DNA of 64,000 bases from Alphaproteobacteria bacterium (GCA_017546315.1 JAFYXH010000009.1:6390-70389), one strand, 5' to 3'; positions 684 through 64,000 are shown, numbered from the stretch's first letter. A program made the numbers and translations. Notes: generated by a model not told the origin, from the sequence alone.

Positions 684-3155
684 ATGAATAAATTTATGAA
701 ATTCTTAAAAAACTGTATGCCTTTTATCATTGGTGGGTGTGTTTTATTTTATTGCTCAGATGCTGAAGCTTGGGCTTGTGAATGGTGCCAAAAATTAAAA
801 GATTGGGTTGTTGATAAGGCTAGTGAAGTAATATTAAATGAATTGGGTATTGATTTAACGGTTAATTGTAATCCTCCAAATCCAGATTCAACTGTTTGTT
901 TGTTCTGCCCGATGTTTAAGATTATCTTTAATGCAGGAAGTATAATGGCGCACAAATCTTATGCATCGTTTGGTGTTGGATTAGCGCAACTTCTACTTGT
1001 GTTTATGGGGGTTTCTATTGCTCTTATTTTATTAAAATATCTATCATCCATGGGGGCAAAAGATGCAAGTGGGCTGATGAATGATTTATTGAAAAAATCT
1101 TTTCTCTGTTGCACGATATTTTACATACTAAATTATAATTATTATAATGTGCTTAATTTAACAATATCCCCTCTTTTTAGTGCGATGATGGATTTTGCCG
1201 CATCTGGTAGCGGAGGATCTTGTCATGGTGCTTCAGGTATTTATGGAGGAATGGGTGGTGGTAGTTCTACTGCAGGAATTGGAGGTGGAATACCAAGTTC
1301 GATTGGAACAGCTATTGTTTGTACTGTAGAAAATATTGAATTTAAGATTAAATATTTATTTGAGTTTGGCGATTGGGCATTTTGTAGAGGTTGTGGCCCT
1401 GATAGATTGTTATTTATATTGCCTCATCCAATATTTATTATTGACGGTTTATTGCTATATATTGGAGGTATTTTCTTTATGGCTTCATACCCTTGGATTA
1501 TGGCTGATGCTGTTTTGCAATTAGGACTTGCAATGACATTACTTCCTTTTGCTATTTGTGGTTTTGCATTTGCTGGGACTAAAGGTTATTTAGGTAAAGT
1601 TTTACAATGGATTATAAACTCTGTTTTTGTATTTGTGTTTATGTCTATTGTAATTGAATGTATATTAGAATATATTGGAAGTGTTTTATCTGCAGCATTA
1701 GCAAATGGTGATTTATCTGATCCTAAGCTGATATTTACAGACCCCAACAAAGGTATAGCGTTTTGGGGGCCTAATATGTTGTATATTATATTTATTCTTG
1801 CGATTGGTTTAACTTATATGCCTTTTGCTAAAGATTTGGCTAAACAACTTTCTAAAGGTTCTGGTGTGGGTGCAGCACAAACAATTGGTAAAGAAGTAAC
1901 CGGAAAAATAGATGACCTCACAGATAAAGCGGCTCACAAAGTAAGACATGCAGCTGTTGAAACAGGTAAATGGGCAGGAAGAGGCATAAAACGAGGTAGT
2001 AAAGCAGCTGTTAGAATCGGAATAGCAAAAACTGTTAATACTTTTGGGACTTCTAATGGTTCTGGTAAATCGATGCGAGTGCTTGGAATGAAATTTTCTA
2101 CCGAAAAGGACGGTAATGGAAGAGATGTTTTAACTCGAGAATGGGTGAACCCTATCAACGGCAGAAGACATGTGATGATTTCTGATAAATACTCTACAAC
2201 ATTTGAAGAATACACCAAAAGTGGTGTGCAAATAAAATCTGACACTAAATTTAAACATAATTTTATGAATGAGCATTTATTTGATGAAAATGGTGATGTA
2301 AACGTTGGTGCAGTTAATGCTATTATGAATTCTCCAAAGGCATTGGCTGATCCTAGATACAGAGAAAAAATCATGACACAAATTGCAGTAAATGCAATGA
2401 AGAAAAAGGGAAAACATGTTGGCAAATATTATAAAGATAGAAAAGTTGTTTATGATCTTTCTGACCCATATAAAATATATATTGAACAAACCGATTATAC
2501 AGGAAAAGTAACTCGTTTTGCAATGAGAATCGACCCTGCTACTGGGAGAATGGCAGTTGGTGCTAAAGTAGAAAGACTAAACAAAAAAAAGATGCGAAAA
2601 ATTAAAAACAGAAAACGCTTCTTAAAGAGGTTTGGACGAGACTTAGGTGGGGGAGAATATGCTTTCAAATCATTTTTAACGGGGACTGTCAGAGAAATAA
2701 AAATAGACTCCCAAACTGGAAGAGAATATTATGTTAAAACCCGAAGAAGACGTTTCTTGTTTTGGAAAACAAAGACTATCATTGTTAAAGACACAGAAAA
2801 TGCCGAGCAAGATGGATTTTTTGATAATGCCTATATGGGGTTTGATACTAGAAAAAATGCTAAAGGAAAGGAAAATACCTATTTAAAATATGGAGCCAGA
2901 GCAAAAGCGGGACATACAGATGTTCGAGATGCAATGAGTGCAGGCAAGATTATTGACGACAAAGGAAACATTGCAGATGATTTGGACATAAGCAATTCTA
3001 ATTGTAAACCCGAAAATGACCTTGTTTTTGGTTCAGATATTTTGATAGATCTCGGTATATGCCCAAGTGGTACAAATTCTCGTGATTTTCTTAAAAATCT
3101 TGGTGCAAGAGCTGCCTCTGAAAGATCAACAAAATTGAATACTAAACATCTATAA
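684..3155 (+). CDS. VirB6-like T4SS membrane protein with Cys-rich N-terminus and ~400-aa basic hydrophilic C-terminal extension
   Basis: RBS AAGGAGG at 672-678. Signal-peptide-like start, CxxC motifs, VirB6-like TM core (aa ~245-385) and long Lys/Arg-rich tail, as in extended Rickettsiales-type VirB6 proteins. Confidence 0.65.
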   Translation: MNKFMKFLKNCMPFIIGGCVLFYCSDAEAWACEWCQKLKDWVVDKASEVILNELGIDLTVNCNPPNPDSTVCLFCPMFKIIFNAGSIMAHKSYASFGVGLAQLLLVFMGVSIALILLKYLSSMGAKDASGLMNDLLKKSFLCCTIFYILNYNYYNVLNLTISPLFSAMMDFAASGSGGSCHGASGIYGGMGGGSSTAGIGGGIPSSIGTAIVCTVENIEFKIKYLFEFGDWAFCRGCGPDRLLFILPHPIFIIDGLLLYIGGIFFMASYPWIMADAVLQLGLAMTLLPFAICGFAFAGTKGYLGKVLQWIINSVFVFVFMSIVIECILEYIGSVLSAALANGDLSDPKLIFTDPNKGIAFWGPNMLYIIFILAIGLTYMPFAKDLAKQLSKGSGVGAAQTIGKEVTGKIDDLTDKAAHKVRHAAVETGKWAGRGIKRGSKAAVRIGIAKTVNTFGTSNGSGKSMRVLGMKFSTEKDGNGRDVLTREWVNPINGRRHVMISDKYSTTFEEYTKSGVQIKSDTKFKHNFMNEHLFDENGDVNVGAVNAIMNSPKALADPRYREKIMTQIAVNAMKKKGKHVGKYYKDRKVVYDLSDPYKIYIEQTDYTGKVTRFAMRIDPATGRMAVGAKVERLNKKKMRKIKNRKRFLKRFGRDLGGGEYAFKSFLTGTVREIKIDSQTGREYYVKTRRRRFLFWKTKTIIVKDTENAEQDGFFDNAYMGFDTRKNAKGKENTYLKYGARAKAGHTDVRDAMSAGKIIDDKGNIADDLDISNSNCKPENDLVFGSDILIDLGICPSGTNSRDFLKNLGARAASERSTKLNTKHL

Positions 3156-43311: not shown

Positions 43312-44787
43312 ATGTGGGAGATGGATATGACAGAAGAAGCTTTAGTAAGTGAAGATTGCTCTATTGATTTACAATGGAGTCAAATTTGTAGTCAACTTAA
43401 AATGGAGTTCGGTGAGACTGCATTTGACAGCTGGCTCAAACCGCTTACCGTCGGAGAATTATCAAACGGCGTAATGAACATTTGCGCACCGACTGCTTTT
43501 ATGAAGAACTGGGTTATTACTCATTATTCAGAGAGAATTAACAAAATTTGGGAACAAAAGAACCAAGAAGTTAAAAAAGTAAACTTTATTGTACAAACTG
43601 GCTTTGCAAATAGACGCAGCACAGATTCATCATTACTTAAAAGAATCTCAACAACACCTACACCACAAAATATTTATGGTGGAAATATAAACAGTAGTTC
43701 TTTTGGTTTAGTTTCTGGCTCAACAGTAACAAGTGAACCTGTAAAAAGCGTAGCCAATACACAATCAACAACAATCCCAAATCCTAACTATACTTTCGAC
43801 AACTTTGTTGTTGGCAAAACTAATGAATTTGCTTACGCTGCTGCTAAAAAAGTTGCAGAATCAAAGAACGTTTCTTTCAATCCTTTATTCTTATATTCAA
43901 GTGTTGGACTTGGTAAAACACACTTAATGCATTCTATTATTGCACACATAAAAGAAAACACACCAAATAGAAATGTGATTTACCTAACTGCTGAACAATT
44001 TGTTTATAAGTTTGTAAAAGCATTACGTTACAAAGACACAACAGCATTCAAAGAACAATTCCGCTCTGTTGATGTTTTGATGGTTGATGACTTCCAATTT
44101 ATGGGTAACAAAGGTACAACACAAGACGAATTCTTCCACACATTCAGCTCATTAGTTGAAGAAGGAAAGCAAGTAATTATTGCTGCTGACAAATCTCCAA
44201 CTGACCTAGAAGGTATCGAAAGCCGTTTAAAATCTCGTCTTGTTGGTGGCCTTGTTGTTGACATCATGCCTACTGACTTCGATTTAAGAATGGGTATTTT
44301 GAAGAAAAAAGCAGAACTTCTTAATATCGATTTACCTACAAAGGTTGCTGAATTTTTAGCACAAAAAATAACATCAAATGTCAGGGAGCTTGAAGGTTCT
44401 CTCAAAAGAGTTGCCGCTCACTCTCAACTATTATCAGGAAAAGAAATAACTCTTGATATGACACAAGATGTTTTAAAAGATATGCTACGCTCTATCGATA
44501 GAAAAACAACAATCGATGAAATTCAGAAAAAAGTTGCAGAACATTTCAATATCTCTGTTAAGGAATTACAATCTTCCAGAAGAGCAAGAACTGTTGCTAG
44601 ACCTAGACAAGTTGCTATGTATTTAGCAAAACAACTTACATCTCGTTCTCTTCCAGAAATCGGACGTAAGTTTGATAGAGACCACACAACAGTAATGCAC
44701 GCTGTAAGAAAAGTTGAGGAACTCATTGTTGAGGACACAAGCTTAGCTGAAAATATTGAGATTTTGAGAAGAACTTTAGAAAACTAG
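43312..44787 (+). CDS. dnaA: Chromosomal replication initiator DnaA
   Basis: YTFDNFVVG, NPLFLY..VGLGKTHL, DDFQF, NVRELEG, domain IV RPRQVAMYL...SLPEIG..F.RDHTTV. Confidence 0.98.
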   Translation: MWEMDMTEEALVSEDCSIDLQWSQICSQLKMEFGETAFDSWLKPLTVGELSNGVMNICAPTAFMKNWVITHYSERINKIWEQKNQEVKKVNFIVQTGFANRRSTDSSLLKRISTTPTPQNIYGGNINSSSFGLVSGSTVTSEPVKSVANTQSTTIPNPNYTFDNFVVGKTNEFAYAAAKKVAESKNVSFNPLFLYSSVGLGKTHLMHSIIAHIKENTPNRNVIYLTAEQFVYKFVKALRYKDTTAFKEQFRSVDVLMVDDFQFMGNKGTTQDEFFHTFSSLVEEGKQVIIAADKSPTDLEGIESRLKSRLVGGLVVDIMPTDFDLRMGILKKKAELLNIDLPTKVAEFLAQKITSNVRELEGSLKRVAAHSQLLSGKEITLDMTQDVLKDMLRSIDRKTTIDEIQKKVAEHFNISVKELQSSRRARTVARPRQVAMYLAKQLTSRSLPEIGRKFDRDHTTVMHAVRKVEELIVEDTSLAENIEILRRTLEN

Positions 44788-51149: not shown

Positions 51150-52823
51150 ATGAAAGATGAAATGAAATCTTTATCTTTAGCAATTGTACTTTCTTTTATT
51201 GCAATTTATAGTGTTAATCATTTTTTTGGGTATAACCAATTTGGCTCTTTACAAGAAACAGAGAAACAGAAAATTGCCCAAAAACTTAATACAGTTACAT
51301 CTCATGTAAAAATTGAAGAAAATGTTCTTAAAACAACTGGTGAAACTATTTCTAGTGAAAAAAGAATCAATATTGATAATAAAACAATAAAAGGAAGTAT
51401 TCGTCTTAAAGGTGGTCGATTTGACAATATCCTCCTTGAAAAATATAATGAAAATCTTGATGATCAAAGCAACAAAGTTGAGCTTTTAGCTCCAAACAAA
51501 ACAAAAAATCCTTATTTTGCGGAATTAGGTTGGTTATCTTTAGATGAAAAAGTTGCACTACCAAATTCTAATACCTCATGGGAAACTACATCTTCTATTA
51601 TTTCTCCTGAAAAACCAGCCATTTTGACTTGGAACAATAATAACGGATTGAAGTTTATCAGAAAAATTCAAATTGATAAAGATTATTTATTTACAATCAC
51701 AGATACTATTGAAAATTTGAGTGGAGAAGAAGTTGAATTGTTCCCTTATGCTCTTCTTAGTAGAGATATTAAAAACTTACCACAGAATCGCTCTGTTGTT
51801 CATGAAGGAATTAGTGCGGTTATCAACGACTCTTTAAAAGAATTTAAGTATGGTGATATAAAAGATGGAGATACTGAAACTTTTGAAGCAAAAACTGGAT
51901 GGATCGGTTTTTCTGATAGATATTGGTTCTCTGCTTTAATTTTGCCTAAAGATGCAAGTAATAAGGTTACCTTAAAAAATAACAATAAAACAAACTACCA
52001 AATAGATTATTTGGGTGGAAGAGCTATTATTCCAAATGGAGAGGCTTATTCATATACTTATAAGTTATATTCTGGAGCTAAAGAAATAAAGCTATTAGAT
52101 AAATATACTAAAGAGGATAAAATATCTAAATTTGATTTAGCTGTTGATTTTGGTTGGTATTATTTTTTAACAAAACCATTCTTCTATATTCTTGATTTCC
52201 TTTATGGATTTTTGGGAAATATGGGATGGGCCATACTTTTGTTTGCAGCGTTATTGAGACTTTTGATGTTTCCTATCGCAAATAAGTCTTTTGCAAATAT
52301 GGCAAAGATGAAAGCATTACAACCTAAACTTGATGAAATTAAATCAAAGTATGGTGATAATCAATTACTTATCCAACAAGCTACAATGGATTTATATAAA
52401 AAAGAGAAAATAAATCCTGCGTCTGGATGTTTACCAATGCTTATTCAAATTCCTGTATTCTTTTCTCTTTATAAGGTTTTGAATATTGCAATTGAGATTA
52501 GACACGCTCCTTTTATTGGTTGGATAAAAGACTTATCTGCACCAGATCCTTTAACTTTTTCAGAAATGTTAAATATATACGTTCCATCATTTATAAATAT
52601 TGGTATTTGGCCAATGTTGATGGGTGTTACTATGTGGATTCAACAAAAGCTTAACCCTGCTCCAATTAACAAAGATCAAGCTATGATGTTTACTTTAATG
52701 CCTGTATTCTTTACATTTATGTTGGGTCATTTTGCATCTGGTTTGGTTATATATTGGACTTTAAGCAATATTTTATCCATTATTCAACAAAAGATTATTA
52801 TGGGTAAAAATGGAGTAAAATAA
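51150..52823 (+). CDS. yidC: Membrane protein insertase YidC
   Basis: VDFGWYYFLTKP, NPASGCLPMLIQIPVFFSLY, WIKDLSAPDP, GLVIYW. Confidence 0.97.
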   Translation: MKDEMKSLSLAIVLSFIAIYSVNHFFGYNQFGSLQETEKQKIAQKLNTVTSHVKIEENVLKTTGETISSEKRINIDNKTIKGSIRLKGGRFDNILLEKYNENLDDQSNKVELLAPNKTKNPYFAELGWLSLDEKVALPNSNTSWETTSSIISPEKPAILTWNNNNGLKFIRKIQIDKDYLFTITDTIENLSGEEVELFPYALLSRDIKNLPQNRSVVHEGISAVINDSLKEFKYGDIKDGDTETFEAKTGWIGFSDRYWFSALILPKDASNKVTLKNNNKTNYQIDYLGGRAIIPNGEAYSYTYKLYSGAKEIKLLDKYTKEDKISKFDLAVDFGWYYFLTKPFFYILDFLYGFLGNMGWAILLFAALLRLLMFPIANKSFANMAKMKALQPKLDEIKSKYGDNQLLIQQATMDLYKKEKINPASGCLPMLIQIPVFFSLYKVLNIAIEIRHAPFIGWIKDLSAPDPLTFSEMLNIYVPSFINIGIWPMLMGVTMWIQQKLNPAPINKDQAMMFTLMPVFFTFMLGHFASGLVIYWTLSNILSIIQQKIIMGKNGVK

Positions 52824-53458
52824 TGTCTGAAAAACTAGAAGAAGCTCGTTTAGCAAAAGGAAAAGAGCTTTTTAATAAACGATGTGATTTTGTTCTTAGT
52901 GTTGCCAATCTTAAACAACTTCCATCTGATGATAAGGTTGAGATTGCGTTTGCAGGAAGATCAAATGTTGGAAAATCAAGTCTTATAAATGCTCTATTTG
53001 GGCAAAGAAAACTTGCTAAAACATCATCAACTCCTGGAAGAACTCAGCAATTAAATTATTTCAATCTTAATGAGCAACTTTATGTTGTAGATTTACCAGG
53101 ATACGGTTTTGCAAAAGCCCCTAAAGATATTGTTAAAAATTGGCAAAACTTAATTAACACTTATCTTGTGGGCAGAGCGAATCTTAGAAGAGTGTTTGTT
53201 TTGATTGATTCTCGTCATGGTATAAAAAAGATTGATGAGGAAATTATGGAAATGCTAGATACTGCTGCTGTTACATATCAGATTGTATTAACTAAAATTG
53301 ATAAAATTAGTGAAAAAGAATTAGAAAAAGTATTAAAAGATACAAACGAAAAGATAAGTAAACACACTGCGGCGCATGTGCTAGTTTTGAAGACGAGTTC
53401 TGAAAAGAATCTATATTTGGATGAATTAAAAGCAGAAGTTGCAGATTTAATTTGTTAA
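52823..53458 (+). CDS. yihA: GTP-binding protein YihA/EngB
   Basis: GRSNVGKSS, TPGRT, DLPGYG, TKID. Confidence 0.95.
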   Translation: MSEKLEEARLAKGKELFNKRCDFVLSVANLKQLPSDDKVEIAFAGRSNVGKSSLINALFGQRKLAKTSSTPGRTQQLNYFNLNEQLYVVDLPGYGFAKAPKDIVKNWQNLINTYLVGRANLRRVFVLIDSRHGIKKIDEEIMEMLDTAAVTYQIVLTKIDKISEKELEKVLKDTNEKISKHTAAHVLVLKTSSEKNLYLDELKAEVADLIC

Positions 53459-53613: not shown

Positions 53614-54603
53614 TTAGGTTATAGCTGTTACACCTCTTATATTACCATCTCTTACAATTTGAACTACATGTAGTTTTCTACGCATTTCTTGCATTGTTTT
53701 TTCAACATTTATATGTGGTGTCTGCTCCATTATACACTTTATGAAAGATTCATAAGCTGCTTCAGGACTTTCGGCGTGAATTGTCGCCATGCAGTTATCG
53801 TGTCCAGATCCCATTAAAGCCCATATTGCAGATGCATTCTTATTTGAAATCTCACCACCTATAATAGCATCGGGGGTAATACGTTTAATTAAGTCTATTG
53901 CATCAGCATCACTCATACCTTCGGTATCTTTATTTTTGCTTCCTTTAACACGAGATAAAACGATATGAATACGATTTGGATGTGGCACTTTTAATTCTCT
54001 AGTATCTTCTAGAGTTACCACTCTTTTATGTATATCTAAAAGTTGCAATAAGTTATTTAAGAATGTGGTTTTACCTGTTCCGGTACCTCCGCTAACTAAA
54101 ATATGATCTCCTCTTCGCAAAGCTAATAATAAACGCTCATATGCATCATCTGGGTCTTTTATGTTTTTCAAGGGATTTATTTCTTTTAATTGTTTACCTT
54201 GTTCCAAACCATAATCACCAAAACCAAAAGCAACATCATCAGAATACAAACGTATTGCGATAGCTATCCCCTCTTTATCTTCAAAACCATAACGAATATT
54301 TCTACCAGCAACACCCGTAAAACGATGTCCTCCTGGGATGTCGGTATAAACTGTTGGAATACCATACATTGGATCAAATTCTTGGTCATTAAGATTTGCT
54401 ATGATATATAGTAAATTAGTCAAATATTCTTTAGTCAATTTAGGATCTTTATAACTAACCCAAGGAAAAGCTCTTTTGCCTCGCAAACGCAACCAAATTT
54501 CTCCTGGTTGATTTACAGCAACTTCTTCTAAATTATCTTGTTCATACCAATATGACAATGGCCTTAGAACTGAACTCAATACTTTATCTTCTTGTTTTCC
54601 CAT
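53614..54603 (-). CDS. virB11: VirB11-family T4SS traffic ATPase
   Basis: EEVAVNQPGEIW, Walker A GGTGTGKTT, Asp box LEDTREL, Walker B PDAIIGGEI, His box SGH...TIHA. Downstream of a VirB10-domain gene. Confidence 0.85.
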   Translation of the reverse strand: MGKQEDKVLSSVLRPLSYWYEQDNLEEVAVNQPGEIWLRLRGKRAFPWVSYKDPKLTKEYLTNLLYIIANLNDQEFDPMYGIPTVYTDIPGGHRFTGVAGRNIRYGFEDKEGIAIAIRLYSDDVAFGFGDYGLEQGKQLKEINPLKNIKDPDDAYERLLLALRRGDHILVSGGTGTGKTTFLNNLLQLLDIHKRVVTLEDTRELKVPHPNRIHIVLSRVKGSKNKDTEGMSDADAIDLIKRITPDAIIGGEISNKNASAIWALMGSGHDNCMATIHAESPEAAYESFIKCIMEQTPHINVEKTMQEMRRKLHVVQIVRDGNIRGVTAIT

Positions 54604-54677
54604 AATATATCCCTACCTATTTATAATCTTTATAATAGCATGTTTTTTAATATTAGTCAATAACACCTATCTATTGA

Positions 54678-57600
54678 TTAGAAATTTAAATCTATTTCAC
54701 CAGCATCTTCTTCATCTTCTTCTTGAGGCATTACTATTGCTGAACCATCAGTAGATGGAGGTGGCAAAGCTCTTATTGGTCGATTTTGATTTCTTTGATT
54801 ATTGTTTTGAGGTGTTTCTTCTGCTATGAGTGGTGTATGCTGTGGTTGATTTTGGGTGTTTTGTTGATTACCCATAACAACTCTTTGCTGATTATTGCCG
54901 GTTGTAGTTGATTTAACACTAGAGCTACCATCCTCATCAATGAGAACATTTTCTACATTTCTCCTACCTGTACTTTCTACACCTTCTTCAACATCTTTAG
55001 CTGATCGCAACCATAAATCACTCATTGGATAAATGATAATTCTTGTTCCAGCAGGAACATAAGTTACCGCTGCTATTTCTTTTTTCTTATCGATAATTTC
55101 TTGCAAAATTTCATCCATTTTGCTCATAAATTGTTCTCTTGCATCTGATGCAGCCTGTTGTTTTGAATTCTCTACTTGCGCATTTGAAGAACTTTCTTCA
55201 TCTGCTGCCATCATGTAAGTTATTGCAGAAGTTACCATTGTTCCTACGATTGGTAGTGTATATTTTTTAACAAGTTGCTCATCTACATATCCAAGAGCAC
55301 CACCTCCACGACCTTGGCTGTCTCCAGTTTGAGCACTATTGATAAAGAAGGATACTCCATCCGGACGAATAATTCTACTCCAACTGATTTCTATTTTTGT
55401 TCCACCACTTGCTCCATCAAATCGACTTCTTTCACCGATATCTTGAAGACCACCGATAACTCTACTTCCGGCTGGAATAATAACATTACGCCCACTATCT
55501 CCATAAACATTACGTTCTACAATAGCAGTAACTGGCGCTGAACCTAATGATATGAGTGATCTAGCTAACACTGCAGGTATAGGCTTATCTGCTGTTATCA
55601 CGTTACTCATATCAACTCTTAGGGTTGAAACTTGTCTTCCTATACCCCAATCGTTTTGCCATCCATCTATTGAAGAAGCATTAAATCCACTTTCTATTTT
55701 AGCACTTGTTAATTTTTCTCTTCTTTGCTGATGATATTGAGACAATATTGCAGCTCTTTGCGGGTTATAACGTCCACCAGGACCAACACCACCGCCAGGT
55801 CCAACATTTGTTATATCATTTTTACTTGAATGAGGTGAAATTGTTGCTCCACTTGCAACATTATGCCACCAATTATCATTTGCTGGTGTTTTCTTTCTAT
55901 TTTTACGTTGTTCTATATTACCAATGGTATTTCCCTCTTCATCTATTATTTGACCATTTTCTGTTTGACGACCAACGATTTTTCCATCTTCACTAATAAC
56001 AACATTATTCTCATATACATCACCAATATACTTACCACCTGGGGTAATAGCAATACCTATGGCTTTATGATTTAATTTTGTTTCCATTACTTCTTTATCT
56101 TCTTTAGTTAGAGCCTGTTGATTATCAGAAGATGAAATATCTTTATTATTTTCTCCATTATTGTTTTCTTGTCCTAATTTTTGATTTTGCCCCACATAAT
56201 TATTACTTTCATAAGCACCTTCTAATTGAGATTTTTCACTTTCTTTATATTCATTATTTATAGAACCCTTATCTTTTGAGGTTGGCAACAAATTATTTTT
56301 TTCTTGATTGCTCTTAGAATTAACATTTCCATCTTTTAGAGTATTATCAATATCATTGAGATTATCATATTCATCATATTGATTTTGCAACTCTTGCTCT
56401 TGGCTTGATTTAGAATCCGCTCTGTTATTGCCTTGCTTAGATGATGATGGATGTGCAGGATGTTGATAATATTGAAGATAATGAGCTATTGCTATTACAT
56501 TGTTAGCGTTGTCTAAAATATTTCCGTTATTATCAAGCGTTCCTACTTTTATATTTTTATTATTTACAACACTACCATCTAATTTCAAGTATCCAATGCT
56601 TTTGTTATTTTTATCTTTTAATGTATAATCTCTATATCCTCTTGCTACAACATTTTGTCTCTTATCTAAAACGAATCCATTATAAATTGTTCCAACAACA
56701 TCTCCCATTATGCTATAAACTTTACCATTTTTAGCAATGTATCCGATGGTATTATCTTGATTATCATAAACATATAAATCGTATAAAGCGTATCCCTTTT
56801 TACCATCTAGAGTTTGAGCTTCACCATTAACATTTACACTTCCAATGATGTTTCCATTATCTGCAATAATATTACCATTTATATCTACTCTTCCTAGATA
56901 AATATTATTATTATCAAATGCTATTGAATAATTAAACAATATACCGAGTTTTTTTCCATCTTTTGATATTACATCACCATATATATTTGTTGATGCTAAT
57001 TGCACACCACTAATATCCAAAATACGACCAGATATATCTGTATATCCAATAATTTTATTATCTAACCCCATTACGGTTGCAAACTTTACAGTTCTTCCAA
57101 TATTCTCACCTTGACTATTTTTTATGAATCCTCTTTTGTCTTGACATCCTAAAACTTGATTTTGATAATTTAGAACATCACCTAAGCTATTGCTTGTTCC
57201 AAGGACTTCTCCCTTATCATTGGTTATGATGCTTGAAGATATAATATGCCCAATAATTTCTTCTCTATCATTTAATACCTGATCATTGGATAAAACTGTT
57301 CCAATATATGTATTTTGAGCGTTTCTAATTTCACCATTATTAGATACTACACCTAAATATTTACAGTCTTTTGTTACGGCTGTTGCAAATGGAAGTGTTG
57401 TTCCATATAGTGCTCCTAGATTATCCATAACATATTTATCAGAACCTATTTTACCCAATGTTTGTTTATTGTTTTCAACATTTCCTCTAAATAGGTTAGC
57501 TCCAAGAAAATCTCCATTTATGCTTATGCTAAAAAAGTCATTTCCACTTTGCTGGTTAAATATAATATTTCCCTCTAAATCTATTATAGAATTGTTAGGT

Positions 57601-59162
57601 AAAATTTTAGATATGCGATTATTTTTATTATCTATTATTGTATTTATTGGGGTTATATAACCTAAATTATCACCCATAAAATTAGTAGCATAGATTGGAG
57701 TATTGGTTTTTCCTAGGATTTTATTATTCTTATCAATCAATACTCCATTTGCATCTAATTTAGATATTTCATTAAGAGATGAATTTTCGCTATCTCCCTT
57801 AACTGATGTATATGTTAAAATATTACCCTCTGGACTATAAACACTTGAAAAACCGATACTATGACCACTTATTTCTCCTGCTTGATTAAAAACATATCCA
57901 TAAGGGGAAATTGTATATATTTCGGCATTTTTATCTAACTGGCTATTTATACCGCTTACGCCTAAATATTTATTTGCTTTATCAAAGATAAGACGTGTTG
58001 ACAAAGTCTTTCCTATTTCACGTCCTTTATAGTCAAAAGCTCTGTCTTTTAGCATATACCCTTGTTCTAACCCATCTAGTGATACTACTTTACCACCAAC
58101 TGAGGCATTTGCTCTTACTTTTCCTAAATAATCAAAAATTGGCCCTTGTTTACTAATGAAACCAATTTGCTTACCTTCTTTATCAACTACATCACCGCTT
58201 GCGTTTATTTTTCCAACAACGTTTCTTCCTTTAACAATTACACCATTTGGAATAAGATACCCTAAGAAACTTCCATCTAAAGCTGTAGCTGTTGCATTGA
58301 ATTCTACTCTAAAACCAATAATGTTTCCGGATTTATCAACTATTCTATCTTCATTAACAGCAAAAGAAGTTGTTGTACCTTTATCAATCACATCACCATT
58401 ATAACTAATTACACCCAAATAATTTCCATTAAAATCAAATGCGTATCCACTATTTACAATATGACCGATTGCCTTTTTATCTTTATCATATATATATCCA
58501 TTTGCGTAAAGATTACCTACTACATTTTTATTTAAATCAAATACTTTTCCATCTGGAGCAACGCTTCCTAAAAATTTTCCATTAAATGAAACTACAATTT
58601 TGGATAGCATCAATCTACCAGATAACTCTAGTTTATTATCATCTTTTGAAGGAATATAGATATAGCCATTAGATGTTGCAACTCCATTACTATCGCCTTT
58701 TAAGCTATAAAAATATCCATCTCCGGAAACTCTACCAATAATCTTACCGCTATCGTTAAATACTAAACCTTGTGATATCACACTTCCTAAAATATCATAA
58801 TTATCATTTACAACTATGCCTTGTGGTAATACTTTTCCTATCAAAGTATCATTTTCGGCGGTTACTGTTCCATCATTATTAACTTTTCCTAAGATGCTAT
58901 TATTATAAGATATGGCAACACCTTGAGGAACAATACCTCCTATTACATCTTTTTTATCATTTATAACATAACCATCTGCTGTTATATGCCCAATAATCTC
59001 ATTATCTGCATTAATAACTGCTCCATCAGGAATCACTTTTCCTAATAAATCTCCATTAAAACTGAGCGCACTGATGTCTGTAGCATTAGCATTAAAAATT
59101 ACATTTATAGTAAATATAAAGCTTAAAATTACTTTATTTAATTTTGATATTTTAAAATACAA
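54678..59162 (-). CDS. virB10: Giant VirB10/TrbI-domain protein with signal peptide and ~900-aa beta-hairpin-type repeat region
   Basis: C-terminal TrbI motifs IPAVL, VTAIVERNVY..SGRNVIIPAGSRVIG, ISWSRIIRPDG, DSQGRGG..GYVD, YVPAGTRIIIY (~55000-55613). Likely start TTG 59162 after GGAGG, giving a signal peptide ending ANA. Confidence 0.8.
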   Translation of the reverse strand: MYFKISKLNKVILSFIFTINVIFNANATDISALSFNGDLLGKVIPDGAVINADNEIIGHITADGYVINDKKDVIGGIVPQGVAISYNNSILGKVNNDGTVTAENDTLIGKVLPQGIVVNDNYDILGSVISQGLVFNDSGKIIGRVSGDGYFYSLKGDSNGVATSNGYIYIPSKDDNKLELSGRLMLSKIVVSFNGKFLGSVAPDGKVFDLNKNVVGNLYANGYIYDKDKKAIGHIVNSGYAFDFNGNYLGVISYNGDVIDKGTTTSFAVNEDRIVDKSGNIIGFRVEFNATATALDGSFLGYLIPNGVIVKGRNVVGKINASGDVVDKEGKQIGFISKQGPIFDYLGKVRANASVGGKVVSLDGLEQGYMLKDRAFDYKGREIGKTLSTRLIFDKANKYLGVSGINSQLDKNAEIYTISPYGYVFNQAGEISGHSIGFSSVYSPEGNILTYTSVKGDSENSSLNEISKLDANGVLIDKNNKILGKTNTPIYATNFMGDNLGYITPINTIIDNKNNRISKILPNNSIIDLEGNIIFNQQSGNDFFSISINGDFLGANLFRGNVENNKQTLGKIGSDKYVMDNLGALYGTTLPFATAVTKDCKYLGVVSNNGEIRNAQNTYIGTVLSNDQVLNDREEIIGHIISSSIITNDKGEVLGTSNSLGDVLNYQNQVLGCQDKRGFIKNSQGENIGRTVKFATVMGLDNKIIGYTDISGRILDISGVQLASTNIYGDVISKDGKKLGILFNYSIAFDNNNIYLGRVDINGNIIADNGNIIGSVNVNGEAQTLDGKKGYALYDLYVYDNQDNTIGYIAKNGKVYSIMGDVVGTIYNGFVLDKRQNVVARGYRDYTLKDKNNKSIGYLKLDGSVVNNKNIKVGTLDNNGNILDNANNVIAIAHYLQYYQHPAHPSSSKQGNNRADSKSSQEQELQNQYDEYDNLNDIDNTLKDGNVNSKSNQEKNNLLPTSKDKGSINNEYKESEKSQLEGAYESNNYVGQNQKLGQENNNGENNKDISSSDNQQALTKEDKEVMETKLNHKAIGIAITPGGKYIGDVYENNVVISEDGKIVGRQTENGQIIDEEGNTIGNIEQRKNRKKTPANDNWWHNVASGATISPHSSKNDITNVGPGGGVGPGGRYNPQRAAILSQYHQQRREKLTSAKIESGFNASSIDGWQNDWGIGRQVSTLRVDMSNVITADKPIPAVLARSLISLGSAPVTAIVERNVYGDSGRNVIIPAGSRVIGGLQDIGERSRFDGASGGTKIEISWSRIIRPDGVSFFINSAQTGDSQGRGGGALGYVDEQLVKKYTLPIVGTMVTSAITYMMAADEESSSNAQVENSKQQAASDAREQFMSKMDEILQEIIDKKKEIAAVTYVPAGTRIIIYPMSDLWLRSAKDVEEGVESTGRRNVENVLIDEDGSSSVKSTTTGNNQQRVVMGNQQNTQNQPQHTPLIAEETPQNNNQRNQNRPIRALPPPSTDGSAIVMPQEEDEEDAGEIDLNF

Positions 59163-59163
59163 A

Positions 59164-62100
59164 TCAGTTCCTCCGATTTTGTGCGACTTCATCTAATGCG
59201 TAGCCAGAAACTTTGTTGCGGCTATTTATGTATGAGCCATTGCTTTTTAAATAGCCAATCTTTCCATTCGTCAAACCACGAACTTCTCCGCTTGCAGATA
59301 ATCGTCCAATATATTTACCATCATTACCTAATATATTAGCACCTATTTTATATGTATGTCCTATAATTTTTCCATTGTTATCTACAACTAAATTTGATGA
59401 TATTAAACGACCAATTACGGTTCTTGCTTCGTTTAATACTTTTCCATCTAAAGATACAAAGCCTATAACTTTATCTTTTTCGTTAATTACAATATCACCT
59501 TTTACAATTTCACCAATCAAATTACCTTTATTATCAGATACTTGACCTTGAGTTAGAACTTTTCCTATTTTTTGTTTATCTGAAGAATATACATTTCCAT
59601 CCATTCCAACTACACCTATAATTTTACCAGAATAATCGAGAACAACACCTCTTTTTATAATACTATAATTGTTATTTGTTATTCCTCCTGGAAGTGCTGT
59701 TGTTATGATATTGTCTTCTAAACTTATGATATCACCTAAGGCATTGATGTATCCTTGAACATTTCCTAAAACATCAATAACAAAATCCTCTCTTATGACT
59801 TCACCAATTATTTGTTTGTTTAAATCTAGTATGTGTCCATCTGAGCTTACTATACCTGTTGTTTTGCCATCTACGTCTATAACCTTTCCGTTTTTGCCAA
59901 CATAGCCAAGATATGAGCCGTCATATCCCATACCAACACCTGTTTGAACAACGCTTCCTCTATATACACCTTTGCTATCAAACATTTGCCCTTTAGCATC
60001 TACTTTTCCATATATTTTACCCAATATATCTATTACTTCTGCATTATCATTTACAAACCCTATTATATCTCCGTTGAAATCAACGACATTACCTTTAGGC
60101 AAAATATTTCCAATTTTCTTATCATATATACCCATTCCATCTAGCATAAATTTATCTATTGCAGCACCTTTGTTGCTGTAGACATATCCATCTGCAAATA
60201 AATGTCCTATGATATTTCCATTAGCATCTATTATAATATTTCTTTCAGGTAAAATAACTCCTTGAATTTCTTTTTTAGGATTAACAATAATACGATTTTG
60301 CATAATTGTTGTATTTGGCATTATATCTGTACTATTATAACTTACGTTGGATAAATTACCTATAAATGTAGAATTAACATCAAAAGCTTGTGTTTTATCC
60401 ATTATTTGACCAATTATAAAGCCATCTCTATTTAATATTTCACCTTCTAAATTGGTGCATCCAATTGGTTTGGCGCCTGAGAATATCATTCCATTTGGAT
60501 TTAAGGTTCCCATAACTTCACCGTTATAGTATAAACCGTATCCTGGTTCATATACTCTTCCTATTTTTCTTTCTTGGTTGATTACTGTACCATCAGGATT
60601 TACACATCCGATATAAGCACCTTGCTCATTTTTTACAAAGCCATCAGCACCTGCTTTTCCTATGATATTGCATTGTTCATCTCTTACCCATCCTATTTTT
60701 GCAATATCTCCAATAATTTCACCTTTATCATTAACGATACTACGATCAAATAACATTCTAAAGCCTGTGTCTTTGCCGTCTTTTTTTACTTTACCGTCTC
60801 TATCTACATATCCTAAATTTTTACACCCCCAACCAACAGCTTTTCCACCAAGAACAGCTTTACCTATTATATTTCCACCTTCATTTGCTTTTATGAGAGA
60901 GTTTGGCAAAACTTTACCAATGATTTCTTGACGAGAATTTATAACCTCACCTTTGCTATTGATTATTCCTAGACCGTATCCATTTGGTGATAATGCAATC
61001 AAATCTTTACGAATAACCGCACCGATACGAACACCTTTAGAACTTATTATATTGCCATTTTCATCTACAATACCAATTACAACGCCATCAAAATCGTAAA
61101 CTTTTCCATCTTTGCCAATATAACCAATTACTTTTCCTGCATCATTTACAGCCAAATTAGAATAATCGCCGACCAAGCCTATAATATTACCATTTTGATC
61201 TGCAGCAAATTCCATTGTGTCGCCTTTTTTACCTATAACATTGCCATTTTTATCTACAAGTTCGCCCTTTTCATTGATTTTTCCTAAGACGTTCCCTTGG
61301 AAATCTCTTGCAATATTATTTTCATCTACATAACCAATAACCTCTCCTGTATCGCTAAGTAGTGCATTATTTTTTACAACATTTAGTTTGTCATTTAGTT
61401 TATTTTGTAATTGGCCAATGACTTTACCATCTGTTCCATAAACAGTGCCATCATCTCCCACTACTCCTATAACTTTACCATCATTTCCGATAACTAGTCC
61501 ATCTTCATTAACATATCCGATAATATTACCATTTTCATCAACTACTACTTTTCTGTAATCTCCTGCTTTACCGATAATATTGCCATTTACATCATGAATG
61601 GTTCCATCTTCACCAAGATAACCGATTAAATTGCCATTAAAATCTCTTACAGTTCCATCATCATCAATGTATCCAATAACATTGCCATTTTCATCTAAAG
61701 CTAAACGTTTACTAATATCTGCTTTTCCCAAAATTTCATCTGTTAAGCCTATTACGTTACCATAGTCATCAACATAGCCTATTAGTTTTCCATTTTCAGC
61801 ATATACTTTACCGTCATCTGATACATAACCGATAACATTACCATTTTCGTCATATGCTAAATTTACTTTATCACCAACTTTGCCAATTACTCTTCCGTAG
61901 CTATCTGTTATTGTTCCATCTGGATTTGCTTTACCGATCAATTTTCCATTAAAATCATAAACATTACCATTTTCATCAATATAACCGATGACATTTCCAT
62001 CTTTATCAAGAGCTAGTTTACCTGTTTTTCCGGCAAACCCAATAACCTCACCTGTGTTATTTAATATATTTCCATCATTATCAACATAGCCTATAATATT

Positions 62101-63999
62101 TCCTTCAAAATCTTTAACAGCTCCGTTTTCATCTAAAAATCCAATAACGTTACCATTTTCATCAAATGCAAGATTTTGAGCTTTTCCGGCCTTTCCTATG
62201 ATATTACCATTTTCATCTATAATGTTACCATTTTCATCTACTCTTCCTACAATCTTTCCATCTTTGCCGATAACATTACCATTTTCATCTACATAGCCTA
62301 AAATTTTTCCATCTTTATCATATGCTATAAGTGCCATCTTACAAGATTTACAAATAATCTCACCTACTGCAATAATATCCTTTTTGCCACTTAAATAACC
62401 TATAATCTTCCCTGTATTATCATAAGCGATATTATTTCTTTTTAATTCACCTATTGTTTTTTGCTCTTTATTTTTAATTATTTTACCATTTGCACTTAAA
62501 GTTCCGATTACATTATTTTTTGATGCTAGAACATTTCCTTTGTTATCTATTACACCAATTATTTTTTGGTTATTTGCATATACATATTCCAAATTATCAA
62601 CATAACCTATCACTTTATTATTTGGAGCAATCACTACATTATATGGTTTGCTTATTTCTCCAATTAGCAAACCTTTGCTATCTACTGCGTCTTTATTTTT
62701 CTTATATCCTATTATTTTATCATTAAAATCTTTGATAACGTCTTTATCATCTAAAAATCCTATTATTTCGCCATTTTTATTTTTAATAATTTTTCTTTGA
62801 ACACAAGTTTTTCCGATTATTTTGTCTCCGGCTTTTATAACTTCTCCGGCTTCATTTACAAAACCAATTATTTTGCCATTTTCATCTAGCACTTGGCCCT
62901 TTTCATTTATATAGCCAATCACATTACCATTTTTATCTAGTGCAACTTGAGAGAAATCACCAGCTCTTCCTATTATGCGTCCCTTTTTATCAACAATAGT
63001 CCCATCTGGTCTTACTCTACCAATTAGATTTCCTTTAAAATCTTTTACTGTACCGTCTTTATCAATATAACCGATTACATTGCCATTTTCATCATAAGCA
63101 AGTCTTCTCATATTGCCGGCATTTCCAATTTTATCACCGCTTGATGCTACAATATTTCCTTTGTTATCAACAACACCTATTATTTTATTATCTTTGTCTA
63201 TAACTCTTTTCTTATCATCTATATAGCCAATTATATTTCCTTTATCATCAAGAGCTAAATCTCTTAATTCACCTTTTTTACCAATTATACGTCCTTTATC
63301 ATCTACGATATTTCCATTTTTATCAGTTTTACCGATTGTATTTCCATTAAAATCTTTTACTGTTCCATCTTTATCAACAAAACCAATTACTTTACCATTT
63401 TCATCATAAGCAACATTTCTTGATGTTCCGGCTTTACCTATTACTTTATTGTTTGTCCCTATAATGTTTCCTTTATCATCAACAAATCCTTTAATAGCAC
63501 CATTTTTGCCAATTACTCTTTGTTTATCATCGACATAACCAATTACTTTACCAGATGTATCAAATGCTAGAGTTTTATAATCATCACTTGTACCAATTTT
63601 TTGACCATTTGCATCTATAATCTCACCTTTGCTATTGGTCTTTCCTATGACATTACCATCAAAATCTATCACATTACCATCATCATCTATGTACCCGATT
63701 ACTTCTCCATTTTTATCAAGAGCAATACGTTTCTTCTCCATTTTGGGAGCATCATCATCTAGACTTATAATATTTCCATTTTCATCAACATAGCCAATTT
63801 TTTGATTATTATGATCATAAACATTGCCTTTATCATCAATATAACCAATAACATTACCATTTTCATCTATTGCTAGTTTAGAATAAGCACCTGCTTTTCC
63901 GATAATCTCACCTTTATCGTTTATGATATTTCCATCTTTATCAACACGACCTATAATATTACCATTAAAGTCTTTTACTGTGCCATCTTTATCAACATA
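59164..63999 (-). CDS. Giant Gly/Asp/Asn-rich repeat protein, N-terminus beyond the window
   Basis: The frame stays open from ATG 63741 to the edge (...YVDKDGTVKDFNGNIIGRVDKDGNII...). Built almost entirely of D-x-x-G-x-[IV]-[IV]-G units. The stop lies 1 nt from the next start. Confidence 0.85.
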   Translation of the reverse strand, partial: YVDKDGTVKDFNGNIIGRVDKDGNIINDKGEIIGKAGAYSKLAIDENGNVIGYIDDKGNVYDHNNQKIGYVDENGNIISLDDDAPKMEKKRIALDKNGEVIGYIDDDGNVIDFDGNVIGKTNSKGEIIDANGQKIGTSDDYKTLAFDTSGKVIGYVDDKQRVIGKNGAIKGFVDDKGNIIGTNNKVIGKAGTSRNVAYDENGKVIGFVDKDGTVKDFNGNTIGKTDKNGNIVDDKGRIIGKKGELRDLALDDKGNIIGYIDDKKRVIDKDNKIIGVVDNKGNIVASSGDKIGNAGNMRRLAYDENGNVIGYIDKDGTVKDFKGNLIGRVRPDGTIVDKKGRIIGRAGDFSQVALDKNGNVIGYINEKGQVLDENGKIIGFVNEAGEVIKAGDKIIGKTCVQRKIIKNKNGEIIGFLDDKDVIKDFNDKIIGYKKNKDAVDSKGLLIGEISKPYNVVIAPNNKVIGYVDNLEYVYANNQKIIGVIDNKGNVLASKNNVIGTLSANGKIIKNKEQKTIGELKRNNIAYDNTGKIIGYLSGKKDIIAVGEIICKSCKMALIAYDKDGKILGYVDENGNVIGKDGKIVGRVDENGNIIDENGNIIGKAGKAQNLAFDENGNVIGFLDENGAVKDFEGNIIGYVDNDGNILNNTGEVIGFAGKTGKLALDKDGNVIGYIDENGNVYDFNGKLIGKANPDGTITDSYGRVIGKVGDKVNLAYDENGNVIGYVSDDGKVYAENGKLIGYVDDYGNVIGLTDEILGKADISKRLALDENGNVIGYIDDDGTVRDFNGNLIGYLGEDGTIHDVNGNIIGKAGDYRKVVVDENGNIIGYVNEDGLVIGNDGKVIGVVGDDGTVYGTDGKVIGQLQNKLNDKLNVVKNNALLSDTGEVIGYVDENNIARDFQGNVLGKINEKGELVDKNGNVIGKKGDTMEFAADQNGNIIGLVGDYSNLAVNDAGKVIGYIGKDGKVYDFDGVVIGIVDENGNIISSKGVRIGAVIRKDLIALSPNGYGLGIINSKGEVINSRQEIIGKVLPNSLIKANEGGNIIGKAVLGGKAVGWGCKNLGYVDRDGKVKKDGKDTGFRMLFDRSIVNDKGEIIGDIAKIGWVRDEQCNIIGKAGADGFVKNEQGAYIGCVNPDGTVINQERKIGRVYEPGYGLYYNGEVMGTLNPNGMIFSGAKPIGCTNLEGEILNRDGFIIGQIMDKTQAFDVNSTFIGNLSNVSYNSTDIMPNTTIMQNRIIVNPKKEIQGVILPERNIIIDANGNIIGHLFADGYVYSNKGAAIDKFMLDGMGIYDKKIGNILPKGNVVDFNGDIIGFVNDNAEVIDILGKIYGKVDAKGQMFDSKGVYRGSVVQTGVGMGYDGSYLGYVGKNGKVIDVDGKTTGIVSSDGHILDLNKQIIGEVIREDFVIDVLGNVQGYINALGDIISLEDNIITTALPGGITNNNYSIIKRGVVLDYSGKIIGVVGMDGNVYSSDKQKIGKVLTQGQVSDNKGNLIGEIVKGDIVINEKDKVIGFVSLDGKVLNEARTVIGRLISSNLVVDNNGKIIGHTYKIGANILGNDGKYIGRLSASGEVRGLTNGKIGYLKSNGSYINSRNKVSGYALDEVAQNRRN
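61100..63999 (-). repeat. Coding tandem repeat array: 17-aa sub-unit (51 bp) grouped into ~52-aa units
   Basis: For example IALDKNGEVIGYIDDDGNVIDFDGNVIGKTNSKGEIIDANGQKIGTSDDYKT (52 aa) is followed by LAFDTSG...AGTSRN (52 aa). DNA TTACCATTTTCATCTAC recurs at 62225 and 62276. Confidence 0.85.
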
Positions 64000-64000
64000 T

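Follow-up and report, generated by a model that had tools for sequence, protein, structure and literature searches.

We analyzed a window of 64,000 nucleotides (nt) from Alphaproteobacteria bacterium (GCA_017546315.1 JAFYXH010000009.1:6390-70389) and focused on an open reading frame (ORF) on its minus strand, which encodes a homologue of VirB10, a core protein of type IV secretion systems (T4SSs). The term window denotes this entire stretch, equivalent to G000:C2:6390-70389, and the sequence beyond its end was read as L002. The ORF is preceded by a second giant repeat gene, and the two products are termed VirB10C and VirB10N, respectively, in this analysis. The two genes and the features of VirB10C are as follows.

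59164-64000, minus strand: C-terminal 1611 codons of VirB10N (Bflower_2, E 1.4e-176)
59164-59174, minus strand: gene junction, with the Shine-Dalgarno sequence GGAGGA (59174-59169) and the VirB10N stop codon TGA (59166-59164)
54678-59192, minus strand: VirB10C ORF, 1504 amino acids (aa) counted from an ATG
59082-59162, minus strand: putative Sec-type signal peptide of VirB10C, 27 codons from TTG 59162, predicted cut before TD
56448-59081, minus strand: array of beta-flower hairpins over 878 residues (38-915 when counted from the ATG), period of ~17 residues (Pfam, AlphaFold2)
56070-56447, minus strand: low-complexity linker rich in N/S/K/E/Q (translation, composition, alignment)
55917-56069, minus strand: isolated three-hairpin beta-flower module, residues 1042-1092 (model strands, pLDDT 80-89)
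55710-55802, minus strand: GPGGGVGPGG motif, then a helix (RYNPQRAAIL...) (alignment, C-terminal model)
55008-55601, minus strand: TrbI/VirB10 C-terminal beta-barrel (Pfam, sequence and fold matches)
55074-55274, minus strand: two-helix antenna of the TrbI barrel (secondary structure of the C-terminal model)
54678-55007, minus strand: C-terminal tail of 109 residues plus stop codon, N/Q-rich and then acidic, ending in GEIDLNF (predicted disordered)

The product of the ORF at 54678-59162 is a VirB10-family protein. The Pfam hidden Markov model (HMM) of TrbI (PF03743) matched residues 1198-1395 with an E-value of 3.8e-28 over profile positions 1-188 of 188, and this is the only TrbI match in the assembly. 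The C-terminal 465 residues also matched solved VirB10 homologues by sequence, namely ComB10 (2bhv; E 1.5e-18), TrwE (7o3j) and, weakly, CagY (8cb2; E 1.5e-5). The AlphaFold2 model of the C-terminal region, built on a 51-sequence alignment (predicted local distance difference test, pLDDT, 61; predicted TM-score, pTM, 0.37), presented a beta-barrel with two antenna helices and a disordered tail of 95 residues. The antenna helices (residues 275-291 and 303-332 of the model) are placed between barrel strands and had low pLDDT as a monomer. When this model was compared with the PDB by Foldseek, the top 25 matches were all VirB10-family chains: CagY (6x6k), ComB10, TrwE, X. citri VirB10, TraF, TraB and DotG (9ngw, 7muq). 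The GPGGGVGPGG motif (residues 1131-1140 of the ATG form) lies ahead of the barrel, the G/P/Y/P columns of its region are invariant in both alignments examined (A1 and A5), and the helix after it corresponds to residues 105-122 of the C-terminal model.

In the repeat region of VirB10C, Pfam detected only the beta-flower families and DUF3659: Bflower_2 (PF21785) with an E-value of 7.1e-41 in 7 stretches (139 bits against a cut-off of 38), Bflower (PF21784) with 7.3e-14 (52.6 bits against 25), and DUF3659 with 9.7e-12. These Pfam scores are far above chance. No Pro-rich linker of the canonical VirB10 type was found in VirB10C; the N/S/K/E/Q-rich stretch at that place differs in length among relatives, and alignment columns about 1101-1250 are gapped. 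A first-pass annotation of this DNA had listed a leader ending before TD, the repeats, the linker, the isolated repeat unit, GPGGGVGPGG, a TrbI domain and an acidic tail, and every one of these elements was recovered where that annotation had put it. Its statement that the repeats differ from those of CagY agrees with the Pfam result and can be extended to DotG.

We searched for relatives of VirB10C to see how the gene is arranged elsewhere. The first scan of genome contigs with the single protein found no relative, but the scan with alignment A1 did. The 80 loci discussed below are the best of 271 confirmed relatives, with one genome per species, and their record titles indicate uncultured alphaproteobacterial metagenome-assembled genomes (MAGs) from the guts of human, ruminant, deer, rabbit and mouse; we take these relatives to belong to the orders RF32 and Rs-D84 of GTDB. 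As the first-pass annotation had anticipated, the repeats and TrbI were encoded in one gene next to virB11 in all of the 80 loci. The 77 complete VirB10C ORFs ranged from 1381 to 1621 aa (stop-to-stop frames), and virB11 encoded about 322-375 aa where the contig extends that far. Seventy-eight of the 80 loci reach the upstream gene, and 68 of these contain a complete VirB10N. In the genus of the window genome, a TrbI ORF of 1384-1490 aa was found in 23 of 24 species genomes, and the 8 loci inspected all displayed the order VirB8-VirB8-VirB9-giant repeat gene-VirB10-VirB11.

Giant VirB10s encoded by single genes were found as well. In an even, class-wide sample, TrbI was detected in 124 of 401 genomes (note that the tally counts one unpublished genome, G065, on which nothing else rests), and 16 giant or long ORFs were taken from this sample. 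Ten of them are single genes of 1936-2838 aa located between VirB9 and VirB11, and their products possess an N-terminal tail and a helix; the two of these unsplit giants scanned against Pfam both bore beta-flower repeats and TrbI. Four more families displayed the two-gene form, in which the TrbI gene has a signal-peptide-like start. Furthermore, the genome G027, which represents another alphaproteobacterial family, encodes a VirB10 of 1273 aa with the helix, sandwich, beta-flower repeats, linker and TrbI in one gene. In the unsplit loci, VirB10 directly follows VirB9. A search of a library of 1.84 billion representatives with the C-terminal query yielded 77 matches at E<=1e-30, and among the matches listed there were 14 of 1235-1647 aa and 17 of 1888-2406 aa.

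The upstream gene turned out to be central to the interpretation of VirB10C. Full-length VirB10N comprises 2516 aa and extends 2714 nt past the window end (G000:C2:65553-73103 = L002:554-8104). Its N-terminus, which is outside the window, is non-repetitive and consists of a short, charged, putatively cytoplasmic tail, a membrane helix, VIILVIGLIAFLSFIFGLVILSI, with 23 apolar residues and a peak mean hydropathy over 19 residues (KD19) of 3.12, an acidic/Pro stretch, and a beta-rich domain of ~120 residues; the remainder is made of beta-flower repeats. Residues 9-273 are collinear with residues 7-252 of the unsplit G027 VirB10 (29% identity, E 3e-27), and residues 1-230 matched the N-termini of all of the 10 unsplit giants (E 2e-16 to 2e-7). 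At the opposite end, the last 500 residues of VirB10C matched the C-termini of the unsplit giants (E 3e-60 to 1e-42). A motif, [ED]xYxxK[TS], precedes the helix in 68 of 68 complete VirB10N sequences and 8 of 10 unsplit forms; a stricter regular expression gave 52/68 and missed true cases, and the looser form was used for the counts. The 68 complete copies varied in length from 1056 to 2518 aa, and VirB10N was located between virB9 and virB10C in all of the 78 loci reaching that far. Judged from these sequence matches, VirB10N is the N-terminal half of VirB10. Since the N-terminus of VirB10N aligns with those of the single-gene giants, we regard VirB10 here as split into an inner-membrane-anchored VirB10N and a putatively Sec-exported VirB10C. 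The first-pass annotation had left the upstream repeat ORF outside its finding, and this cannot be retained for a protein with the VirB10 cytoplasmic motif, a helix of 22-23 residues and a beta-sandwich. In the public record, a fragment of VirB10N is described solely as a 'DUF3659 domain-containing protein'. A protein homologue search that started from residues 1-230 of VirB10N and asked for shorter lengths retrieved only 21 close fragments; distant or fused forms were absent from its output. Matches of the post-helix sandwich to the ASH domain were observed in 2 of 5 proteins scanned with E-values of 0.005-0.008, which is below the cut-off and a hint only.

The two genes meet at a compact junction. 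GGAGGA sits within the last codons of VirB10N and is followed by the TGA stop and then by TTG at 59162-59160, whereas the ATG at 59192 lies 5' of this ribosome-binding site and within the upstream gene. TTG 59162 is thus the better start, as already proposed at first pass, because the ribosome-binding site precedes it and it comes directly after the upstream stop. The VirB10C translation begins with MYFKISKLNKVILSFIFTINVIFNANA before TD, and its tail ends with EEDEEDAGEIDLNF. In all of the 78 loci, the VirB10N stop was followed by an in-frame start with a Shine-Dalgarno-like motif; the stop-start distance fell between -1 and +7 nt in 74 of them, and the implied leaders were mostly 25-35 residues long. 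The starts of VirB10C were TTG in 52, ATG in 13 and GTG in 13 loci, and the stops of VirB10N were TAA in 35, TGA in 29 and TAG in 14. The use of TAA, TGA and TAG alike disfavours read-through of a single reassigned codon. In addition, a 541-nt contig from an independent animal-gut run (X4) bridges the junction, covering window positions 58788-59328 with 1 substitution and no gaps. The junction is a designed gene boundary between two genes rather than an assembly error. RNA-library run X19 gave two small contigs within VirB10N and none at the junction.

The N-terminus of VirB10C bears the features of a Sec signal peptide, namely a basic n-region with 3 Lys, a short h-region of 13 apolar residues, within the usual span of 7-15, and a c-region, NANA, with small residues at -3 and -1. 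We compared 80 leader sequences (one locus copy truncated at its N-terminus was excluded, and the window protein was added). At position -1 of the predicted cut there were 74 A and 6 S, and at position -3 there were 55 A, 15 V, 4 L, 3 S, 2 T and 1 G. The fraction of the majority residue rose from 0.35 in the columns preceding the site to 0.79 in the 25 columns that follow, and this jump, as far as an alignment can tell, is the pattern of a disposable leader ahead of a constrained mature end. The KD19 peaks were 1.57 for the leader and 3.12 for the VirB10N helix. However, a Kyte-Doolittle window of 19 residues alone failed to part signal peptides from anchors, while the length of the apolar run (the longest stretch without D, E, K, R, N, Q, P or H) parted them: the median was 13 (7-18) in VirB10C, 22 (17-25, n=68) in VirB10N and 23 (21-25, n=10) in the unsplit forms. 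The window VirB10C has no further 19-residue window with a mean hydropathy above 1.61, and by hydropathy and apolar runs neither an inner-membrane helix nor a cytoplasmic N-terminus was found on this chain. Altogether, the N-terminus of VirB10C appears to be a Sec signal peptide, not an anchor, most likely cut after ANA, in agreement with the first-pass reading of the TrbI-bearing chain. As to the further claim of release from the inner membrane, the VirB10C chain appears free of an anchor, but a loss of the inner-membrane link by the system is not supported, since VirB10N bears the membrane helix. As a separate observation, a contig of run X5 matched the window on both flanks and appeared to have the 105 letters of the leader stretch (window 59061-59165) replaced by 115 others; one flank is only 25 letters long and the contig possibly derives from a relative, so that we did not rely on it, although it would fit a leader free to vary.

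To order the split and unsplit forms, we inferred a tree from the TrbI region by maximum likelihood (32 rows, 320 columns, LG+C20), in which only near-duplicates of the 80 loci were omitted among the giant rows and 12 rows represent that family. The 18 split rows made up one side of a branch with support of 97/92, recovered in 96% of bootstrap trees. The unsplit rows were scattered outside the split group, and the short VirB10s were placed further out. Together with the class-wide sample and the matches at both ends of the unsplit giants, this topology suggests that the giant beta-flower VirB10 is ancestral and widespread in this part of Alphaproteobacteria, and that fission is derived and occurred once. 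The first-pass annotation spoke of a 'rebuilt' VirB10, for which 'split' would be the better word. Outside the giant forms, a 0.9-Mb genome (G271) encodes a VirB10 of 833 aa without beta-flower repeats (L119:1234-3732, minus strand), in which, by eye, a beta-rich domain of like kind seems to follow the membrane helix; the helix-sandwich module may be older than the repeat expansion.

The array of VirB10C is not a plastic repeat tract, as its length was 875-887 aa in 78 of the 79 full copies and 837 aa in the remaining one. AlphaFold2, run with a 76-sequence alignment, predicted an all-beta structure with a pLDDT of 93.4 and a pTM of 0.91 over the 878 residues, which is in line with the large beta-structured part foreseen at first pass. 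The model contains about 100 short strands with a period of ~17 residues, and residues 28-905 of VirB10C contain 45 [DNEQ]xxG motifs, which would form the tips of short hairpin 'petals'. The high pTM suggests one defined body rather than beads on a string. We rejected an identity with Rhs/YD or CROP repeats: Foldseek returned low E-values for Rhs, teneurin and clostridial toxins, but the TM-scores were about 0.1 and the root-mean-square deviation was about 29 Å, and these matches probably reflect local hairpin likeness only. In a VIA-align comparison with 48161 solved chains, none matched at Z>=5, which does not prove the fold new; the structural matches fell on modules of ~51 residues with Z at most 4.5. 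Members of the beta-flower families are characterized by closed barrels of 8-12 strands and about 100 residues.

Among the best-conserved stretches of either array are the final ~110 residues of VirB10N and the beginning of mature VirB10C, both of which face the junction. A complex was predicted for the C-terminal 350 aa of VirB10N and the N-terminal 350 aa of mature VirB10C, with an alignment of 76 rows for either chain. The three runs scored 0.79, 0.81 and 0.79 (median 0.79), and the best of 3 controls scored 0.00; of 80 solved complexes, 58 attained the mark set on this score, and of 110 mismatched pairs, 2 did. The predicted complex displayed ~225 contacts with a partner pLDDT of 86-87, and the runs agreed in at least 79% of the contacts. 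On the first chain the interface extends over residues 98-349 and on the second over residues 1-235, so that both junction-facing termini are included. This prediction supports, without showing it, that VirB10N and VirB10C bind each other.

In the interpretation that we consider probable, VirB10 has been divided between two adjacent, translationally coupled genes, and the ORF encodes its outer-membrane half. The ancestor, which is still one gene elsewhere, would have comprised the cytoplasmic tail, membrane helix, beta-sandwich, long beta-flower array, linker and TrbI barrel, and in the window lineage the gene would have been cut inside the hairpin array. VirB10N would have kept the tail, the inner-membrane helix, the sandwich and a long array projecting into the periplasm, and its cytoplasmic motif and helix would keep the contacts with the inner-membrane complex and the ATPases. 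The downstream gene would have acquired a ribosome-binding site, a start codon and a Sec signal peptide; VirB10C would be exported by Sec, lose its leader and be free of the inner membrane in the periplasm, where its TrbI barrel would build the outer-membrane cap together with VirB9. The C-terminal part of the VirB10N array may then pack on the N-terminal part of the VirB10C array. Such packing would restore the envelope span non-covalently, and signals of VirB4, VirB11 and VirD4 could still reach the outer-membrane gate. Extending this model, we put forward, tentatively and with more doubt than confidence, a T4SS of undescribed architecture, in which each protomer would bear ~3000-4000 residues of rigid beta-flower array, the two VirB10 halves would be zipped non-covalently, the energy signal would cross a protein-protein interface, and the length of VirB10N would tune a megadalton periplasmic scaffold.

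Several points weigh against this interpretation. The rigidity of the array as one body is judged from pTM. The controls of the complex prediction were unrelated proteins and included no non-cognate beta-flower fragment, so that generic repeat-repeat packing is possible, and as our own alignments were used, the calibration holds only roughly. Cleavage of the leader is deduced from the (-3,-1) rule, the length of the h-region and the conservation pattern, and 4 of the 80 copies carry Leu at -3. The X19 contigs, the only ones from an RNA library, may be DNA; we claim neither transcription nor co-transcription. The tree is a gene tree, was rooted at the midpoint, covers 320 columns, and places two split rows and all of the short outgroups on long branches. 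Finally, BLAST did not place the fission point on the unsplit proteins, as the repeats match many positions at similar scores, and a partial tandem duplication followed by complementary loss gives the same end state as fission.

This last route, in which a giant virB10 was partially duplicated in tandem and then lost TrbI from the upstream copy and the anchor from the downstream copy, is the best of the alternatives. The first 200 residues of mature VirB10C matched best near residues 365-555 of three unsplit proteins (one family) and not in mid-array, and in the window genus VirB10N and VirB10C together amount to about 3500-4000 aa, which exceeds any unsplit form seen (1936-2838 aa). On the other hand, VirB10N (about 1056-1640 aa) and VirB10C (about 1440-1620 aa) of the sister genera sum to lengths like those of unsplit forms, and the repeat similarity is too promiscuous for placing segments. 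We regard the duplication route as unlikely, albeit worth serious consideration. It is a good deal less probable that VirB10 was merely released from the inner membrane with a beta collar and that the upstream repeat protein is independent, acting as an adhesin, a scaffold or a substrate. VirB10C does have its own signal peptide and a complete, conserved array, and the length range of VirB10N looks less constrained than that of a fixed machine part. However, an independent protein would hardly share its N-terminus with single-gene VirB10s, occupy the same place in all of the 78 loci with a coupled stop and start, or conserve its last ~110 residues so highly, and the complex prediction supports a contact. 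We think it very improbable that the hydrophobic segment of VirB10C is an uncleaved signal anchor that tethers both halves in the inner membrane. The KD19 of the leaders across homologues (1.26-2.37) overlaps that of weak membrane helices, and low-GC organisms use helices containing Asn and Thr; nevertheless, the apolar runs are far shorter than the 22-23 residues of the system's own anchors, all of the 80 sequences have A or S at -1, and the sequence diverges freely before the site and is nearly invariant right after it. An artefact or pseudogene, by frameshift or assembly error in one giant gene, could be suspected in a fragmented assembly (14 contigs, 65% completeness) but is effectively refuted, as 78 species genomes share the split with a Shine-Dalgarno sequence, a start, a signal peptide and TAA, TGA or TAG stops, the contig of the independent run has an identical junction anatomy, the two genes are read in different frames, and a signal peptide would be senseless in the interior of a fused protein.

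The split VirB10 proposed here can be compared with the known systems. Canonical VirB10 contributes to a 14-fold outer-membrane core complex with VirB7 and VirB9. Like the canonical VirB10/TrbI proteins (A. tumefaciens VirB10, pKM101 TraF, R388 TrwE, X. citri VirB10 and H. pylori ComB10), VirB10C has a barrel with a two-helix antenna, and its gene resides in a virB8-virB11 operon beside virB9 and virB11. In contrast to the canonical protein, described in the part of PMC6362355 available to us as one chain in both membranes that lines the outer-membrane cap, the helix and the TrbI barrel are here on two polypeptides, the barrel chain has a putative Sec signal peptide, and about 880 (C half) and about 2300 (N half) beta-flower residues take the place of the mostly disordered N-terminal domain. 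CagY of the H. pylori Cag T4SS is also a giant VirB10 homologue with long repeats N-terminal to TrbI, but it is encoded by one gene and has another type of repeat, whereas the present protein is split and contains beta-flower families. DotG/IcmE of the Legionella Dot/Icm system is likewise an enlarged VirB10 homologue with repeats before TrbI, and its barrel was among the fold matches; its repeats are, however, pentapeptides of variable number, and it has its own membrane anchor. According to the accessible part of PMC6761968, the repeat number of CagY shifts between strains by recombination, and a second inner-membrane protein, DotF, interacts with DotG. Compared with the variable repeats of CagY and DotG treated there, the VirB10C array is nearly constant in length and VirB10N is the variable partner. 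Nothing in the literature searched pointed to DotF as a part split off from DotG, while VirB10N is homologous to the N-termini of single-gene VirB10s.

The beta-flower fold was defined from predicted structures (Durairaj et al., 2023, PMC10584680) as barrels of ~100 residues built from petals of hairpins, akin to Tubby domains and lacking a known function. The arrays studied here resemble the beta-flower proteins (PF21784/PF21785, clan mates of Tubby's C-terminal domain) in HMM scores above the cut-off, short antiparallel hairpins and [DNEQ]xxG tips. In contrast to the single barrels described in the accessible part of that paper, some of which are lipoproteins, 878 to about 2300 residues are contiguous here, and the array is fused to or partnered with a secretion core protein; a link to type IV secretion is not mentioned in the same part of PMC10584680. 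The rvh T4SS of Rickettsiales has a duplicated VirB8, several VirB6-like genes and scattered islets, according to the part of PMC2653234 available. The rvh type also has virB8, virB9, virB10, virB11 and virD4 in a single cluster. The window genome likewise has two VirB8 genes, three weak VirB6-like matches below the cut-off and scattered islets, but its virD4 is not beside virB11, its VirB10 is giant and split, and its VirB9 carries a SPOR domain.

In the literature searched, outside of which lie subscription journals and supplements, we found neither a link of beta-flower or DUF3659 repeats to VirB10 nor a description of a split or signal-peptide VirB10. The system is clearly a VirB10-based T4SS whose periplasmic architecture and division of the core protein are unreported in that literature. 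VirB10 is the textbook protein inserted in the inner and the outer membrane of Gram-negative bacteria, and in the prevailing view ATP-dependent signals travel to the outer-membrane gate through its continuous chain. A lineage in which VirB10 is cut in two and the outer half is exported by Sec puts the need for such continuity directly in question. For the beta-flower fold, known from predicted structures only, the periplasmic part of a secretion machine would be the first clear cellular context. If the arrays are indeed zipped together, nature has performed a 'split VirB10' experiment and the fold receives its first assigned role. Going by the record titles, the carriers are common Alphaproteobacteria with small genomes that inhabit human, ruminant and rodent guts and are uncultured, and a conserved, elaborate T4SS of the effector type suggests intimate contact with other cells.

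The operon has the order VirB8-VirB8-VirB9-VirB10N-VirB10C-VirB11, with VirB10N as one extra gene between virB9 and the VirB10C ORF. The neighbouring features are as follows.

53614-54603, minus strand: virB11 ATPase gene, last of the operon (Pfam T2SSE, E 6.5e-23)
L002:8101-10056 (G000:C2:73100-75055, beyond the window end), minus strand: VirB9, 651 aa, CagX domain at residues 82-327
L002:11956-17283, minus strand: ORF of 1775 aa, 5' of the two virB8 genes, no Pfam match

The ATPases VirB4, VirB11 and VirD4 are all present in the genome; VirB4 is encoded ~18 kb beyond the window and virD4 on another contig (G000:C5). On the opposite strand, yidC and engB come after virB11. As housekeeping genes are close by, with dnaA, yidC and an engB-like GTPase gene near the operon (window 43312-44787 and 51150-53458, plus strand), the T4SS operon is chromosomal and not on an obvious mobile element. 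Three TrbL/VirB6 matches with E-values of 1e-5 to 1e-4, below the Pfam cut-off, fell on ORFs of 446, 458 and 834 aa at window 684-3155 (plus strand) and G000:C2:2007-3911, ~50 kb from the virB8-11 operon.

Some additional features of these proteins were observed. VirB9 contains a long linker rich in N/S and, at its C-terminus, a SPOR (peptidoglycan-binding) domain (E 3.6e-4), SPOR was also found on VirB9 of the unsplit G027 locus (E 7e-5), and a SPOR-tethered VirB9 may be a further special feature of this T4SS. The 1775-aa ORF has a predicted signal peptide, many Cys residues and long, coiled-coil-like K/E-rich stretches; other loci of the genus carry large ORFs at the same position, and its product may be a T4SS-associated surface or substrate protein. 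In nearly all of the giant VirB10s, both split and unsplit, a long disordered tail closes with a short conserved motif, ...[PV]xLF, and in the window (54681-54740) the end reads GEIDLNF; an aromatic residue at the very end, preceded by an acidic stretch, suggests a signal for docking or targeting. Finally, the GC skew was strongly negative (-0.21 to -0.48) over both repeat genes at window 54000-64000, which likely stems from Gly (GGN) and Asp/Asn/Lys codons on the minus strand and not from replication.

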